Shown: positions 7,078 through 40,233 of the stretch, one piece after another
Layout: each line of letters opens with the position of its first letter
How positions within the stretch are numbered: position 1 is the first letter of the stretch
Source: Escherichia phage vB_EcoM_KAW1E185
DNA length: 64,000 bases
Sequence record: NC_054922.1
Reading direction: 5' to 3' (one strand)
The notes under the pieces: model-generated
Databases searched by the model: none
The model's input: the letters and a program-made list of their open reading frames with translations, nothing else
Told to the model about the DNA's origin: nothing
Translations under genes and position numbers: made by a program

Positions 7078-7371
7078 TCAGCTGTAACGATAACACTCGT
7101 TTGATTTACGTTTAGCAACTCGTTGAGAAGTATTATAATCAAAATCATCATCAATGTAAACAGATTTTTTCAACTTTCTTACTTCACCACGTAATTGACG
7201 ATTTAACTCATCTTTAACTTCTGAATCAATGCCTTTCATTCTACGCCATTTATCTGAGCGAAAAATGTTTTCAACCATATCTTTATGACTTACACCATCA
7301 GGAGCTTTACGCTTTCCAAAATAGTCATAATCACGAACTTTTAAGTCTTTACGACGATACGTTTTACCCAT
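7078..7371 (-). CDS. Hypothetical basic protein (97 aa; start MGKTYRRKDLK)
   Basis: SD AAGGAAA upstream of ATG at 7371; ORF track 7078-7416 begins at an unlikely upstream start. Confidence 0.5.
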   Translation of the reverse strand: MGKTYRRKDLKVRDYDYFGKRKAPDGVSHKDMVENIFRSDKWRRMKGIDSEVKDELNRQLRGEVRKLKKSVYIDDDFDYNTSQRVAKRKSNECYRYS

Positions 7372-29415: not shown

Positions 29416-29796
29416 TCAATTAGAAAATAAATTTATCCAAGATTGTTCTTTAATTAAAAATGGCTCAGAATCATATGCCATTAAACTTTGCGTAATTAAT
29501 CCTTTAAAAGGTCCATCAATAAATTCCATGGTAAAATATGGAATTTTATTCATTAGCCGTGCATTAGGAGCAGTGCACAAAACTCTGCATCCTTTGAATA
29601 CGCCTTTTTGTAATTTGTATTGCTTAGGATAAAATTCACTTAAAATGTTATTTTTTGCCAAAATTTCAAAATGATTCACCAATTTATTTTTAATAGTTTT
29701 TGGTGAAAAATAAAGATATTCAAAAAGTTGCGCATCTGTCATCATTGCATTCCGATTACGAAAAACTGTGGACGAGTAATACCACCAATGCAACAT
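29416..29796 (-). CDS. Hypothetical protein (126 aa); possible 3' part of a split P-loop NTPase
   Basis: Overlaps upstream ORF by 55 nt in another frame; contains LCTAPN. Confidence 0.4.
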
Positions 29797-30281
29797 TTAC
29801 TATTACAGCAGTAGTGTACAGTGTCAATATGGACACTATAAATCTTATCCATATCAGGAGATTTGACAGGCTCATCAATTATATACAAAATTCGCGAAAG
29901 CGATAAACCTCTGAACTTGCTTCCTTTATTACCAATAAAACTGCGCACAGAATCAGTAAATAAACGAAAACGTATATCATCATTAGAATAACGCGAAAAT
30001 TCCTTTTTGATGTTATTTGCAGAAATTTTAGCGTAAGCTGAAGTATTAGAAAGAACAATAACTGTTCCGCCATCATACAACCAATTAGCAGCAAAGTTAG
30101 TCACAGCAATTGATTTACCAGATTGACGTCCACCGTCTAGTCGAAGTGTGCAGTACTGTTTAAGTAATTCTTCAAATGGCGGGATATATTCGTTTTTACA
30201 AATTTCTTCTACTCTAGCATCAGAATGGTGTGTAAAAGCATTCATCAGGGATAGATAAGGACCAGTTAAAAATGTTCTCAT
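29742..30281 (-). CDS. P-loop NTPase with terminase-like Walker A (179 aa)
   Basis: Walker A LDGGRQSGKS, Walker B ILYIIDEP. Confidence 0.5.
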   Translation of the reverse strand: MRTFLTGPYLSLMNAFTHHSDARVEEICKNEYIPPFEELLKQYCTLRLDGGRQSGKSIAVTNFAANWLYDGGTVIVLSNTSAYAKISANNIKKEFSRYSNDDIRFRLFTDSVRSFIGNKGSKFRGLSLSRILYIIDEPVKSPDMDKIYSVHIDTVHYCCNSKCCIGGITRPQFFVIGMQ

Positions 30282-30421
30282 TTCTTCTCTCTAAGTTTGG
30301 GCCATTCCATGGCGCATGAATTGTCCATTTCTGTATTTACCCATTACCGCACTTGGGCTCGACCTTATTACAGGTTGGCGGGAATCCCTCATAGAATCAT
30401 GAGGTCCAGGTTGTTCCCATG

Positions 30422-30895
30422 TTATTTGAACGATTTAACGTACTGAATAGAACCTTTACTATTCACAAAGGCAATTTTACCATTTTTGTTATACATGGTA
30501 GCAGTACGTTGATAGCCATAAGTTTGTTTACCAGATTGATAACCAACTAATGCGAAATTATCTTCACCCATTTTATTCTGCTTAGCACGAATGCGTTCAT
30601 GACCATGTGCCATAAGAACCTTAGCATCACCAGTTGCAATGGATCTACGAGTTTTTTCATCTTCAACTGTATTAACAAAGTCGTCAAATGAATCAAATTT
30701 AGCATGAGATTTATTATACAGTTTTCCATCTACTGCATAATTATATCCTTGTACATCCATCTCAACTTCTGTACCATCATCCAGTACAGCAGTGATTTTC
30801 TGTCCTTTTTTAAATTTCAAAAGATCAGTAAAAGATTCAGCAATAATTTGAGAATTAATAGCTGCTTCAGTAATAAATTCTTGATATGTTTTCAT
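30422..30895 (-). CDS. Internal-protein-like capsid-targeted protein (157 aa)
   Basis: N-terminal MKTYQEFITEA resembles the T4 internal-protein capsid targeting sequence. Confidence 0.6.
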   Translation of the reverse strand: MKTYQEFITEAAINSQIIAESFTDLLKFKKGQKITAVLDDGTEVEMDVQGYNYAVDGKLYNKSHAKFDSFDDFVNTVEDEKTRRSIATGDAKVLMAHGHERIRAKQNKMGEDNFALVGYQSGKQTYGYQRTATMYNKNGKIAFVNSKGSIQYVKSFK

Positions 30896-30954
30896 GTGTA
30901 TCCTTTAAATGTAAATATTTTAATTAATAATTTATCTCTTCAAGTAACTGTGAA

Positions 30955-30984
30955 TATACTATCACAATTCTAGGAGAAAGTAAA
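30955..30984 (-). promoter_or_regulatory. Early promoter
   Basis: Minus strand TTTACT - 17 nt - TAGTAT. Confidence 0.55.
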
Positions 30985-30989
30985 CAACT

Positions 30990-31520
<531 letters not shown>

Positions 31521-35184: not shown

Positions 35185-35658
35185 TTATTTGATTTGTTTA
35201 GCAGACCAAATGCGGTCTTTGATAATTTTTTGGATGTCTTCAACATATTCAAGAGAGTGAACATGTGGGTTATCTTTGAAACTATAAGCACGAGCTAGCT
35301 TTTGGCCTTCAGTTTTGATTACTAAAAGCTCTTTAAGGATAGCTTCATATTTGGAGATAATTCCTTTAACGATATTTTTCTCTTGTGTGACTTTAGGATC
35401 TGCTTTAGGAGCAGGTTTACCCGAAGCCTTTGCAAAAGCAGCGCCAGTAGCAACTAAACTTTTCCAGGCCATACTAACTGCATTCCCTGTAAATCCTTCG
35501 GCTTTCATATCACGAGCAAATTGGAATCGTGATTCATCGGAAGCATCTTTATAGGAATATTTACCCGCGGCAATGGCTGCTTTTGCGACAGCTTGAATTT
35601 CGGTGCTAGATGCTTCATTTAACACCGCTTCATTTAAAAATTGAGCATATGATTTCAT
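35185..35658 (-). CDS. Internal protein III-like capsid-targeted protein (157 aa from MKSYAQF)
   Basis: SD AGGAAA before ATG 35658; N-terminus MKSYAQFLNEA resembles the capsid targeting sequence; ORF-track 216-aa form overruns terminator and late promoter. Confidence 0.6.
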   Translation of the reverse strand: MKSYAQFLNEAVLNEASSTEIQAVAKAAIAAGKYSYKDASDESRFQFARDMKAEGFTGNAVSMAWKSLVATGAAFAKASGKPAPKADPKVTQEKNIVKGIISKYEAILKELLVIKTEGQKLARAYSFKDNPHVHSLEYVEDIQKIIKDRIWSAKQIK

Positions 35659-35696: not shown

Positions 35697-35704
35697 TATT
35701 TATA
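35697..35704 (-). promoter_or_regulatory. T4 late promoter
   Basis: Plus tatttata = minus TATAAATA, ~40 nt upstream of ATG. Confidence 0.6.
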
Positions 35705-35733
35705 CCAAAAAGCCCCAACCTTTCGGTCGGGGC
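35705..35733 (-). terminator. Intrinsic terminator ending the tRNA/stable-RNA transcription unit
   Basis: Minus strand GCCCCGACC-GAAA-GGUUGGGGC followed by UUUUUGG. Confidence 0.75.
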
Positions 35734-35744
35734 TAAGCCTTGCG

Positions 35745-36040
35745 GCAACCTTGTCGGGGTTCCACCTGCTAAGGCAAGTGTTTGTACGAAACGCCGGGAT
35801 TCGAACCCGGTTATTAAGTAGTTGACGCTACTCAATATTTTTAAAAGGCCATATCTCGACCATATCCGAACGTTCCGTCAAAAACGCTACTCGGCTTACG
35901 GCAAAGATATTTCCTCGAATCGATAATTCGGTGCGCCGTTTCTGCTGTGATGTAAGAGGGCATCAATAAACGCAAAGATTATTAACGCAATTCCTTACTC
36001 AGGGAACATCAGTCCGACGACTTACCGGTAGCGACCCGGT
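35745..36040 (-). ncRNA. Putative stable structured RNA(s) downstream of tRNA cluster (possible analogue of T4 species 1/2 RNAs)
   Basis: No credible ORF; tRNA-like T-arm CCGGGUUCGAAUCCCGG near 35795-35811 and several further stems; boundaries approximate. Confidence 0.35.
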
Positions 36041-36043
36041 TTC

Positions 36044-36394
36044 TTAATATTCTTTTAAAGCATCAATCTGTTTACGGCGTTCACGCCATAAATCAATTGC
36101 TTCATACGCGGATTCAGCATTTCGAATTAGCCGGCATTTATGTAAAGACTTATGATTTTGATATTGTGTAGATAACGGAATTTTATCTAAAAGGTCTTTA
36201 CGTTCAAAGTATTCGTAACCATCTAAGCCAAATGAACGATTTTTGAGAAATTGCCAATGACCAAATTCGTTTTGAATATAAATATAATCCGCATGTTGAT
36301 AAAGTAAATTAATTTCACGAAATGAGATATGTTTTTCATATTCATTGAAGTAAAATGTTAAATCATGAACTACTAAATAAACATTACCTTTCAT
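36044..36394 (-). CDS. Hypothetical protein (116 aa) inside the RNA gene region
   Basis: SD GAGGAAAA 5 nt upstream of ATG 36394. Confidence 0.5.
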   Translation of the reverse strand: MKGNVYLVVHDLTFYFNEYEKHISFREINLLYQHADYIYIQNEFGHWQFLKNRSFGLDGYEYFERKDLLDKIPLSTQYQNHKSLHKCRLIRNAESAYEAIDLWRERRKQIDALKEY

Positions 36395-39554: not shown

Positions 39555-39788
39555 TTATTTTTTACGAAAAATTGATTTATATTTATCAGCCCATTTCTCG
39601 ATGACTTTTTCTGGTCCATAGATAACAAAATAATCACCAAACTCTTCACCACCGAGTTGACCGAAATTATCTAATGCATCACGAAGAACTCCATGAGGCA
39701 TTTCGCCCATTTTATCTTTCTTACCAATGTAAATAAACTCAACTTTTACATCAGCAGCTTCAGCAATAAATTCTTGATACGTTTTCAT
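39555..39788 (-). CDS. Internal-protein-like capsid-targeted small protein (77 aa from MKTYQEFIAEA)
   Basis: Capsid-targeting-like N-terminus; early promoter directly upstream. Confidence 0.6.
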   Translation of the reverse strand: MKTYQEFIAEAADVKVEFIYIGKKDKMGEMPHGVLRDALDNFGQLGGEEFGDYFVIYGPEKVIEKWADKYKSIFRKK

Positions 39789-39824
39789 TTTATTCTCCAA
39801 TTTCACATTTGTTTTGATAGGGCA

Positions 39825-39852
39825 ATAGTATCACTACTAAAACCCCGTGTAA
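39825..39852 (-). promoter_or_regulatory. Early promoter
   Basis: Minus strand TTTACA - 17 nt - TACTAT. Confidence 0.6.
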
Positions 39853-39873
39853 ACAACTTTGTGAAATTGTTTA

Positions 39874-40161
39874 TTACAAAAGATTTTTAGCAATAATCTT
39901 GAGATGTGCTGCAGAAATGTGTTTAGCTTTAAACAACGCAGTTTCTTCGGCAGGAGAGATAACGATTGTAGCACCATCCTTTTTAGCAGACCACCCATCA
40001 CCTAGGTAAACAGTACCTTTGATTTCTTCGCCATCAACCAGACTAATCATTGGTTTACCTTCTCGTCCTTTATTTGCTTTAATAACTTCAGAAGTAAGAG
40101 TAGCTTCGGTAATGGTAGAAACCGGGGTAGTTGTAGAAGTAAATTCTTTAAATGTTTTCAT
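39874..40161 (-). CDS. Internal protein I-like capsid-targeted protein (95 aa)
   Basis: N-terminus MKTFKEFTSTT; adjacent to 57B where T4 places ipI. Confidence 0.6.
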   Translation of the reverse strand: MKTFKEFTSTTTPVSTITEATLTSEVIKANKGREGKPMISLVDGEEIKGTVYLGDGWSAKKDGATIVISPAEETALFKAKHISAAHLKIIAKNLL

Positions 40162-40191: not shown

Positions 40192-40220
40192 ATAGTATCA
40201 CTACCTCATCAGTATGTAAA
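40192..40220 (-). promoter_or_regulatory. Early promoter with flanking inverted repeat
   Basis: Minus strand TTTACA - 17 nt - TACTAT; GATGAG...CTCATC brackets the -10. Confidence 0.6.
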
Positions 40221-40233
40221 CAACTTTGTGAAA

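Follow-up and report, generated by a model that had tools for sequence, protein, structure and literature searches.

Very probable assignment of an open reading frame downstream of lysozyme gene e in Escherichia phage vB_EcoM_KAW1E185 to ip4, an allele of the polymorphic internal protein cassette of T4-like phages

The open reading frame (ORF) at 30422-30895 of the analysed 64,000-nucleotide stretch of the phage vB_EcoM_KAW1E185 genome (hereafter the window) is very probably ip4, which is among the alleles of the polymorphic internal protein (IP) cassette situated downstream of the lysozyme gene e in T4-like phages. Ip4 belongs to the head-packaged "internal proteins" of these phages, and its name dates from the 1990s. 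The gene as such is already known: ip4, its targeting signal and its locus polymorphism have been in the literature and in annotations since that decade, and the copy in the window is an ordinary one, being identical to that of phage T2. An open-access literature search found Ip4 in a phage context only in the Silas supplement (PMC12373910). The features discussed below, including the capsid targeting sequence (CTS) of the protein, are collected in Table 1.

Table 1. Coordinates of the ip4 locus and of related features in the window (sequence record NC_054922.1; position 1 is the first letter of the window).
Feature	Position	Strand	Match or remark
vs.8 homologue, downstream neighbour of ip4	29742..30281	-	
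ip4 coding sequence	30422..30895	-	157-aa precursor, ATG start
CTS codons 1-10, MKTYQEFITE, ending in I-T-E/A	30866..30895	-	Comparison with T4 IPII/IPIII
Shine-Dalgarno AAAGGA, 5 nt upstream of the ATG	30901..30906	-	Conserved with T4 ipIII and ipII
Inverted repeat AATTGTGA / TCACAGTT flanking the -10 element, stem-loop part of the IP cassette	30946..30969	-	
T4 early-type promoter GTTTAC-N18-TAGTAT, extended -10 (TG two bases upstream of the -10 hexamer)	30956..30985	-	
Gene e (lysozyme), conserved upstream neighbour of ip4	30990..31484	-	
Two TATAAATA late-promoter motifs upstream of gene e	31498..31518	-	Motif match
Fourth CTS-like ORF, 157 aa, MKSYAQFLNEA...	35185..35658	-	PHROG 2280 (function not assigned)
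Terminator hairpin (35712-35733), T-run and late promoter TATAAATA (35697-35704), upstream of the fourth CTS-like ORF	35697..35733	-	
ip6, 77 aa, MKTYQEFIAEA..., CTS-type	39555..39788	-	PHROG 8111 "internal virion protein", E=1.8e-50
Early-type promoter of ip6	39825-39854		
ipI, T4-type, GmrSD inhibitor precursor, CTS-type	39874..40161	-	Pfam IPI_T4, E=7.3e-54
Early-type promoter of ipI	40192-40221		

The identification is carried by full-length matches to named families. The product matched Pfam DUF7412 with E=5.7e-96 and 319.4 bits (cut-off 27) over protein residues 1-157 and profile positions 1-158 of 158, and PHROG 3155, "internal virion protein", with E=6e-102 over residues 1-157 of 157. 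All 157 residues were the same as in the gene product of phage T2, and identity to UniProt Q38388, "Ip4 [phage K3]", was 99%. In RB14 the gene product is annotated as "Ip4, similar to T2, RB70 Ip4", and the same protein is called Ip4 in AR1 and ipIV in GiZh. The protein body, which a sequence-only reading of this DNA had been unable to recognise, is thus that of a catalogued and named family. The Ip4 proteins of T2, K3, RB14 and AR1 are this same protein, encoded downstream of e as here and sharing its CTS and predicted fold: the AF2 model of the window protein (pLDDT 76.7, pTM 0.72) scored a TM of 0.87 against the BFVD structure of Q38388. With residues 1-10 removed, mature Ip4 would have a mass of about 16.5 kDa and a pI of about 9.1; it is basic, with 17 Lys and 5 Arg, like other internal proteins.

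The family is carried by 469 phage records, among which 289 are at least 99% and 305 at least 95% identical to the window protein, so that Ip4 is nearly invariant within the latter set. It is more widespread than IPIII, which is present in 261 records, and spans at least four phage genera with Escherichia, Salmonella, Klebsiella and Serratia as hosts. The dN/dS ratio of 0.13-0.14 against orthologues from other genera indicates purifying selection, and comparison with the RB14 copy gave zero non-synonymous changes at a pS of 0.062; on both counts ip4 is a real gene.

The idea that this gene is simply an IPII (or IPIII) orthologue draws on the locus and the CTS that it shares with T4 ipII and ipIII, and on the record of Shigella phage SH7, in which the identical protein is labelled "internal head protein II". 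However, no similarity extends past the CTS: BLASTP of Ip4 without its first 12 residues against IPI, IPII, IPIII, Ip5, Ip6 and Ip7 gave a best E of 0.28, with IPII reaching E=0.87 at best and IPIII giving no match even at E 100. PHROG matches to the other internal-protein families were weak (E 0.0009-0.009) and confined to the N-terminal part. Moreover, true IPII and IPIII homologues occur alongside Ip4 in the same Klebsiella phage genomes. The BLASTP result for the body and this coexistence refute the orthologue reading, to which we assign virtually no probability, and the core of the earlier reading, a CTS-bearing internal protein, holds for a protein that is none of IPI, IPII and IPIII. 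Neither a profile nor a fold match was found between Ip4 and Pfam PF11634 IPI_T4, and the bodies of IPII and IPIII, as well as denV, were absent from the whole 64-kb window.

Wider searches were conducted with both the model and the sequence profile of Ip4. Foldseek of the model against BFVD returned only Ip4 of K3 itself; the profile search against PDB sequences gave nothing below E=0.5, and the NCBIfam search yielded sub-threshold noise only. Among 1.84 billion representatives, the profile recovered just three further members with 34-37% identity, all with CTS-like N-termini (MNF..FLNES) and with no close relative among isolated phages, while outside the family the same search gave only short or repetitive matches (E>1e-6).

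The N-terminus MKTYQEFITEA had been read as CTS-like from the letters alone, and the comparison bears this out, since nine of its first ten residues are those of IPIII and residue 9 alone differs (MKTYQEFIAE in T4 IPII and IPIII against MKTYQEFITE in Ip4). All four CTS residues important in IPIII (Y4, F7, I8 and E10) are kept. Mutagenesis of IPIII has shown that residues 4 and 7 matter for targeting and residues 8 and 10 for processing, and that ten IPIII residues suffice for packaging foreign proteins (PMC9026906). A site for the prohead protease gp21 is present as I8-T9-E10/A11, which fits the L/I-x-E motif; E10 was invariant in 14 clusters of the Ip4 family, and position 8 was always occupied by I, L or M. 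Like Ip4, T4 IPIII is basic and has a gp21 I-x-E/A site after residue 10, and in GenBank X04567 residues -10 to -1 of both IpIII and IpII are given as removed, although the mature parts of IPIII/IPII and Ip4 are unrelated in sequence. T4 IPI* also resembles Ip4 as a small basic protein with a CTS-type propeptide encoded at a polymorphic IP locus; IPI* is injected, and gp21 removes its propeptide. In comparison, IPI has a 19-residue propeptide and a compact fold of 76 residues, whereas in Ip4 the propeptide has 10 residues and the body about 147, and the two bodies share no sequence or fold similarity.

A second candidate gp21 site, I-A-E20/S, was also considered. A mature start at S21 was first entertained because E20 does not vary and only I, L or M occurs at position 18. 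As the main cleavage site it was rejected: the virion peptide LATVGVMTESVGSNLLK of an orthologue (see below) spans it, and no separate SVGSNLLK peptide was among those listed.

A six-frame scan of the window with the motif MK[ST][YF].[EDQ]F gave exactly four matches, all on the minus strand, namely the N-termini of ip4, ip6, ipI and the fourth CTS-like ORF of Table 1, which are the same four that the sequence-only reading had picked out. In 200 shuffles of the window, the mean number of matches was 0.005 and the maximum was 1.

The region upstream of ip4 agrees with that of T4 ipIII in its promoter, stem-loop and ribosome-binding site, as do the first codons, and the promoter lines up base by base with the intergenic region between e and ipIII of T4. 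At the corresponding place, inside an inverted repeat (A/A') with a putative stem-loop, GenBank X04567 marks a "pot. -10 region (IpIII)", and promoter and stem-loop elements have been described at the two IP loci (PMC2839356). The early promoter previously placed at 30955-30984 was thereby recovered, at the position given in Table 1. A generic sigma-70 scan had missed it because it scores 8/12 against TTGACA/TATAAT, with the threshold set at 9; T4 early-type promoter matches in the window numbered 14 on the minus strand and 2 on the plus strand. The description of the protein as early-expressed nevertheless proved only half right, because a protein packaged into the prohead must also be made late. 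The early-type promoter is there, but late-promoter motifs lie upstream of e, and no terminator-like sites were predicted on the minus strand between e and ip4. These late motifs are the likely source of late transcripts that would read through e into ip4. An intergenic promoter is lacking in three other genera, where ip4 directly adjoins e or overlaps its stop codon (Melville, Klebsiella Jiaodavirus and Serratia SP1).

The position directly downstream of e is shared by the ip4 genes of the window, RB14, T2, Bas38, Bas43, Bas44, Melville, Klebsiella Jiaodavirus and Serratia SP1; the exception is Bas42, in which, unlike in the window, denV sits between e and ip4. Between vs.8 and e, T4 has denV, ipII and ipIII, whereas the window has only ip4. 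The gene occupies the e-proximal IP locus, in a cassette homologous to those of T4 ipIII and ipII, with the same e-adjacent slot and a near-identical early promoter, stem-loop and ribosome-binding site. The 140-nt spacer downstream of ip4 contains one 7-bp hairpin, and its structure is not unusual (z = 0.6); an Rfam search over 28-42 kb found only tRNAs. The ipI product of the window aligned with T4 IPI without any difference, and Ip6 was 84% identical to VR7 Ip6 and 79% identical to T6 Ip6. The surroundings of the identical Ip4 are thus a mosaic, with T4-type ipI and Ip6 in the window and an Ip5-like gene and Ip7 in T2. The window indeed holds more ip-type genes than the three of T4, as had been remarked earlier, and this excess is the long-known polymorphism of the IP loci; PMC2839356 refers to more than 30 variants.

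Published virion proteomics of a Klebsiella phage bears on packaging. For virions of ValerieMcCarty03/04 purified on CsCl, Table 3 of PMC13119998 gives gp127/119, "internal virion protein", 66/66 spectra. The corresponding gene, VMC263_127, adjoins the lysozyme gene, and its product is 70% identical to the window Ip4; its spectral count (66) is similar to that of a baseplate wedge subunit. The orthologue peptides listed in the supplement fall between residues 13 and 150 and include R.LATVGVMTESVGSNLLK.F, which starts just after the E10 site. The CTS string TYQEFLNESR occurs 66 times among the rows listed, against 69-76 times for five other strings, which fits its presence only in the repeated full-protein column and never as a detected peptide. 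This absence of the CTS peptide is consistent with cleavage at E10, though as weak evidence, coming from a 70% orthologue and trypsin-only data. That the Ip4 family is a virion component is strongly supported by the abundance of this orthologue in purified virions of a different phage. Of the two outcomes named in the sequence-only reading as refuting it, an IPII orthologue and absence from virions, neither was observed, the second as judged from the orthologue.

The same data weigh on the reading in which the CTS-like N-terminus is a by-product of recombination at a shared promoter/5' cassette and Ip4 stays out of the head as an early protein of the cytoplasm. Cassette shuffling is suggested by a promoter, ribosome-binding site and first codons near-identical to those of T4 ipIII/ipII in front of unrelated bodies, and the promoter is of the early type. 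Yet the orthologue is found in purified virions with high spectral counts, the CTS is kept in genera that lack the promoter cassette and have ip4 directly after e, and a CTS-like MNF..FLNES persists in the members of 34-37% identity. Furthermore, the ten IPIII residues are enough to package foreign proteins (PMC9026906). The unpackaged by-product was already disfavoured, and we regard it as extremely improbable.

By analogy with T4 IPI-IPIII, the CTS would take Ip4 into the scaffolding core of the prohead, where gp21 would cut after I-T-E10 to leave the basic, lysine-rich protein of about 16.5 kDa. Mature Ip4 would then stay with the packaged DNA and be ejected with it into the cell, as is known for T4 internal proteins (PMC12373910, PMC9026906). 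Once in the cytoplasm, it might bind and disarm a nuclease-type first-response defence, with a type IV (modification-dependent) restriction enzyme as the most probable case; we hold this role to be quite conceivable, if somewhat short of probable. It would match the action of IPI, Ip2 and Ip3 against GmrSD variants and of Bas37_0260 against McrBC. T4 IPI* inhibits the GmrSD of E. coli CT596. Ip1, Ip2 and Ip3 each inhibit a distinct GmrSD, with IPIII acting on the two-gene GmrSD of ECOR17 and Ip2 on GmrSD-ECOR21/BrxU (PMC12373910), and a CTS-less IPIII is effective from within the cytoplasm (PMC9391042). Bas37_0260, the CTS protein at the ipI locus of Bas37, inhibits McrBC (bioRxiv 10.1101/2025.11.20.689424) and so demonstrates that type IV enzymes besides GmrSD are within reach of IP-locus cargo. 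It is a non-T4 internal protein recognised by an N-terminal signal like that of Ip4, but it is located at the other IP locus, next to 57B, and carries a demonstrated phenotype.

Several observations count against this reading. A test of ip4-10 against a GmrSD panel gave no reproducible inhibition, the ip4 of that panel being matched to the present gene by name only (PMC12373910 Supp. Fig. 9). T2 is restricted by GmrSD-ECOR17 and GmrSD-ECOR21 (PMC12373910); since the T2 record encodes an identical Ip4, these two enzymes are not Ip4 targets. The conservation across genera, the dN/dS of about 0.13 and the near-invariance are not the pattern expected of a strain-specific arms-race effector. Finally, T4 and T6 are without ip4, and the gene is therefore dispensable.

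The strong purifying selection and the conservation across genera would also suit a mainly structural or DNA-associated head component with no specific host target, serving for charge neutralisation, DNA organisation or, as reported for IPIII, faster core and prohead assembly. Mature Ip4 is basic and lysine-rich, with K58, K62, K108 and K157 among the residues that are invariant even in the most distant members, and in T4 heads contacts with DNA phosphates were seen only for the lysines of internal proteins (PMC3012670). The abundance of the orthologue in virions (66 spectra, similar to a baseplate wedge subunit) and the tight coupling of ip4 to the late gene e outside Tequatrovirus point the same way, and IPIII mutants have slower head assembly and smaller bursts (PMC9026906). 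On the other hand, T4 and T6 form normal heads without ip4, T4 mutants without all three IPs are viable (PMC9026906), and IPIII, the precedent for this role, proved to be a specific GmrSD inhibitor (PMC12373910). A purely structural Ip4 is, in our judgement, unlikely, albeit a reading to be taken seriously.

Ip4 could also be pictured as an injected enzyme which, like the ADP-ribosyltransferase Alt, modifies a host component instead of acting as a stoichiometric inhibitor. Close members of the family (at least 61% identity) keep many polar residues unchanged, among them D47, H64, H99, R101, E111, D112 and N113, and Alt illustrates that enzyme delivery by T4 heads is possible (PMC9026906). Alt, too, travels in the head core, undergoes gp21 processing and is delivered to the host by ejection, but this large enzyme has an N-terminal propeptide of 7 residues that is not an IP-type CTS, whereas Ip4 has no enzyme signature: no enzyme-family match was found for it in Pfam, NCBIfam or PDB sequences. 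The enzyme reading is weakened because the invariant His and acidic residues of the close members are lost in the 34-37%-identical ones, H64, the H-G-H motif and E111/D112 all being replaced in the three distant members, in which the invariant positions are mostly Gly, Lys, Asn, Ser, Ala and Tyr. An enzymatic Ip4 appears very improbable.

The fourth CTS-like ORF lies outside both canonical IP loci. Its family is present in 510 phage records and is called "hypothetical protein" in all 25 records listed; F7 and L8, followed by an L/F-x-E site, are invariant in 11 of 11 aligned members, and the mature product is predicted to begin after L-N-E10 or L-N-E15. The layout of a hairpin, TATAAATA and ATG recurs in a 39%-identical homologue from a Klebsiella phage. 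A fold search with the AF2 model (pLDDT 73) gave generic helical-hairpin matches only, and the rows listed in the virion mass spectrometry supplement contained no peptides of the Klebsiella homologue, in phages that may or may not carry the gene. This unannotated ORF is a small lead.

A more far-reaching interpretation takes both genes together. Ip4 may be not a strain-specific GmrSD inhibitor but a protein injected to counter, possibly by binding nucleic acids, a defence or a host factor that is conserved across Enterobacterales, with the ORF at 35185-35658 encoding a genuine packaged protein; we consider this combination possible, but doubtful. The antagonist of a conserved factor would explain the occurrence of Ip4 in 469 records against 261 for IPIII, its spread over at least four genera, the dN/dS of about 0.13 and the negative result with the GmrSD panel. 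If true, the packaged product of the ORF would define a third internal-protein locus, whereas according to the literature none exists. Although the gene itself is an old acquaintance, Ip4 remains of interest because three internal proteins of T4 and one of Bas37 have recently been shown to inhibit type IV enzymes. Its target, once found, would be a defence or host factor relevant to a large share of T4-like phages, including many therapeutic candidates.

The sequence-only reading had singled out a 157-aa open reading frame with a capsid targeting sequence (CTS)-like start, ip4, and ORF calling confirmed it in all details. A six-frame scan of the window with the pattern MK[ST][YF].[EDQ]F returned exactly the four ORFs named in that reading, compared to a mean of 0.005 hits on shuffled sequence. 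The window is a segment of a mosaic Tequatrovirus (T4-like) genome, whereby the 24 kb surrounding ip4 match phages 303Ecol101PP and RB18 at 97-98%. The T4 gene order is kept (vs genes, e, nudE, e.2-e.8, rnaC/rnaD, tRNA cluster with segB, trna.2-4, ipI locus, 57B, 57A, gene 1), and nowhere in the 64-kb window do denV, ipII, ipIII (the IPII and IPIII bodies included) or e.7 occur. The small stable RNAs rnaC and rnaD are 99% identical to those of T4; within 28-42 kb, Rfam at gathering threshold recognised the nine tRNAs alone and matched neither RNA to a family.

Features of the internal protein loci in the window
Feature	Position	Strand	Description
ip4	30422-30895	-	157 aa, N-terminus MKTYQEFITEA
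Inverted repeat	30946-30969	-	about the -10 element, e-ip4 spacer
Early-type promoter of ip4	30956-30985	-	GTTTAC-N18-TAGTAT, extended -10 TG
Late-promoter motifs	31498-31518		two TATAAATA, 5' of e
Fourth CTS-like ORF	35185-35658	-	157 aa, MKSYAQFLNEAVLNEA..., L-x-E sites
TATAAATA motif	35697-35704	-	between hairpin and Shine-Dalgarno of the fourth ORF
Hairpin (terminator)	35712-35733	-	upstream of the TATAAATA motif
rnaC	35785-35923	-	small stable RNA
rnaD	35930-36044	-	small stable RNA
ip6	39555-39788	-	PHROG 8111; 84% to VR7 Ip6, 79% to T6 Ip6
Early-type promoter, ipI locus	39825-39854	-	GTTTAC...TGATACTAT, one per gene
ipI	39874-40161	-	Pfam IPI_T4, 7.3e-54; aligns with T4 IPI without differences
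Early-type promoter, ipI locus	40192-40221	-	GTTTAC...TGATACTAT, one per gene

The body of the protein, not recognised in the sequence-only reading, is in fact catalogued. Pfam DUF7412 covers it entirely (E=5.7e-96), PHROG 3155 'internal virion protein' matches it (E=6e-102), the RB14 locus (98.4% identical) is annotated 'Ip4, similar to T2, RB70 Ip4', UniProt Q38388 'Ip4 [Enterobacteria phage K3]' is 99% identical, and the product of T2 gene EcT2_00129 is identical at 157/157 residues; further records are labelled Ip4, ipIV or 'internal virion protein'. By its sequence, Ip4 belongs among the classic polymorphic internal proteins and is already known and annotated in several records. At least 10 internal proteins (PMC12373910) and more than 30 variants (PMC2839356, citing Comeau 2007) have been reported. 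By tblastn, ip4 occurs in 469 phage records (T4 IPIII in 261), 289 of them at at least 99% identity and 160, from Klebsiella, Salmonella, Serratia and other T4-like phages, at 60-80%. Some names are misleading: the T2 record (AP018813, 6430-6903) calls ip4 'valyl tRNA synthetase modifier', with many nearby names plainly wrong (e.g., small vs-region ORFs as 'tail sheath monomer'), and Shigella phage SH7 (KX828711) labels Ip4 'internal head protein II'.

With the CTS removed, Ip4 showed no similarity to IPI, IPII, IPIII, Ip5, Ip6 or Ip7 (best E=0.28), and the proposed alignment with the three T4 proteins thus found an unrelated body. The family is small: a collection of 5.8 billion proteins holds 14 clusters at 90% identity, and 1.84 billion representatives yielded just three additional, distant members. 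Against the orthologues of Melville and Klebsiella phages, dN/dS was 0.13-0.14, synonymous sites being close to saturation, and the comparison with RB14 gave zero non-synonymous changes at a pS of 0.062; this pattern marks ip4 as being under purifying selection. The predicted mature protein (residues 11-157) has about 16.5 kDa, a pI of about 9.1, 17 Lys and 5 Arg. Its AlphaFold2 model is alpha/beta with moderate confidence (pLDDT 76.7, pTM 0.72) and superposes on the independent BFVD model of Q38388 with a TM of 0.87. An enzyme is disfavoured, since the polar residues H64, H99, E111 and D112, invariant in close members, are not retained in distant ones. The residues persisting there are mostly Gly, Lys, Asn, Ser, Ala and Tyr, a pattern mildly favouring a binding protein.

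In IPIII, the first 10 residues are enough for packaging, residues 4 and 7 serving targeting and 8 and 10 processing, and the prohead protease gp21 cleaves after L/I-x-E (PMC9026906); for IpIII and IpII, GenBank X04567 gives residues -10 to -1 as removed. The CTS assignment holds at each of these positions: Ip4 keeps Y4, F7, I8 and E10 and differs from the IPIII CTS in residue 9 only. E10 is invariant in the family, and the three remotest relatives (34-37% identity) still start with MNF..FLNES or similar. A second candidate gp21 site is I-A-E20, with an invariant Glu and I, L or M at P3; its use in the main form is disfavoured because the orthologue virion peptide R.LATVGVMTESVGSNLLK.F spans it.

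Presence in virions, proposed as a check, was found for the family. In CsCl-purified virions of the Klebsiella Jiaodavirus phages ValerieMcCarty03 and 04, 66/66 spectra were reported for the 'internal virion protein' gp127/119, listed beside gp128/120 (lysozyme) and gp126/118 (PMC13119998, Table 3). VMC263_127, the gene directly after that for lysozyme, shares 70% identity with Ip4; VMC263_126 is an IPII homologue. The supplementary peptide table contains the complete orthologue sequence, and the peptides shown all fall between residues 13 and 150. The CTS tryptic string TYQEFLNESR occurs there 66 times, compared to 69-76 for the other five strings searched; these counts fit its confinement to the repeated full-sequence column, never as a detected peptide. 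The orthologue data are consistent with cleavage after E10, a missing peptide being weak evidence, but are not proof for the phage studied here.

The e-ip4 spacer is nearly base-for-base the T4 e-ipIII spacer, the Shine-Dalgarno and first CTS codons included, and in X04567 the corresponding T4 stretch is entered as a potential -10 region for IpIII within inverted repeat A/A'. Promoters of this type also stand before T4 ipII and, in the window, before ip6 and ipI; early-promoter and stem-loop elements of this kind probably mediate shuffling at both IP loci (PMC2839356). Matches to GTTTAC-N16-18-TAnn[AT]T number 14 on the minus strand (e.g., at 7132, 7571, 11929, 15636, 18592, 20293, 23866, 28256, 34987 and 39525) versus 2 on the plus strand, most with the TG extended -10; these positions can serve as a map of candidate early promoters throughout the window. 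With this strand bias and the T4 ipIII counterpart, the early promoter ascribed to ip4 belongs to a recognised class. The description 'early-expressed' is nevertheless incomplete, since a prohead component must be produced late: late-promoter motifs lie 5' of e, no predicted terminator separates e from ip4, and late transcripts would read through e into ip4.

The arrangement vs.8-ip4-e is common to the window, where ip4 is all that lies between vs.8 and e (region 29742-31484), RB14, T2 and the BASEL phages Bas38, Bas43 and Bas44. T4 has vs.8-denV-ipII-ipIII-e, Bas42 an intermediate e-denV-ip4-vs.8, and T6 wholly lacks an ip gene at the e locus. No promoter lies between e and ip4 in Gelderlandvirus (Melville), Jiaodavirus (Klebsiella) or Muldoonvirus (Serratia SP1), where ip4 abuts the e stop codon or overlaps it; linkage to e is therefore the feature kept across genera, while the private early promoter was found, among the loci examined, only in Tequatrovirus. 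Klebsiella Jiaodavirus and Salmonella Gelderlandvirus stretches show e-ip4-ipII/ipIII, with IPII/IPIII-type genes just 3' of ip4 (L008 3048-3620; L012 12561-13600; L007 3063-3326). These arrangements suggest a multi-ip array of which Tequatrovirus lineages may have retained different subsets.

The ipI locus of the window (39555-40161) combines a T4-type ipI with Ip6, as opposed to ipI alone in T4, Ip5 and Ip6 in T6, an Ip5-like gene and Ip7 in T2, and an ipI-like gene and Ip5 in RB14. The fourth CTS-like ORF lies outside the two canonical IP loci, directly 3' of rnaC. It belongs to PHROG 2280 ('unknown function') and occurs in 510 phage records, with 'hypothetical protein' in 25/25 of those listed. 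Its Y4, F7, L8 and E10 agree with what is required of a CTS; of these, F7 and L8 do not vary, and an L/F-x-E site follows in 11/11 aligned members. No early-type promoter was detected at this ORF; it has a late promoter of its own just after the terminator hairpin, and a Klebsiella phage homologue with only 39% identity (L017 2430-2503) repeats the hairpin-TATAAATA-ATG order. Its AF2 model consists of helices only, a fold search with it found no specific match, and no peptides of the homologue were found in the portions searched of the Klebsiella virion mass-spectrometry supplements. The ORF is a candidate for an overlooked, unannotated packaged protein.

All CTS-type internal proteins whose role is known are inhibitors of type IV restriction systems. 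With strict specificity, IPI* acts on GmrSD of CT596, Ip2 on GmrSD-ECOR21/BrxU and Ip3 on the two-gene GmrSD of ECOR17 (PMC12373910); IPIII lacking the CTS is active from the cytoplasm (PMC9391042), and Bas37_0260, from the ipI locus of Bas37, inhibits McrBC (bioRxiv 10.1101/2025.11.20.689424). The latter gene lies about six genes before gp2 (bas37_0266), adjoining 57B (bioRxiv 10.1101/2025.11.20.689424; 10.64898/2026.05.12.724681), in the slot held by ipI in the window and by Ip5 in T2, T6 and RB14. Both IP loci have been predicted to carry cargo against GmrSD variants, ip4-10 gave nothing reproducible against a GmrSD panel, and T2 is restricted by GmrSD-ECOR17 and GmrSD-ECOR21 (PMC12373910); according to its genome record, T2 encodes exactly this Ip4. 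The sequence-only observation is confirmed and its interpretation essentially right, and the best estimate for Ip4 is an injected counter-defence protein, at somewhat under an even chance. A structural or DNA-associated role, the main rival, is less likely. The wide conservation of ip4 under purifying selection is more in keeping with a conserved target, or with a structural role, than with a strain-specific arms race. The search for the Ip4 target is a real question, already recognised and pursued in the field.
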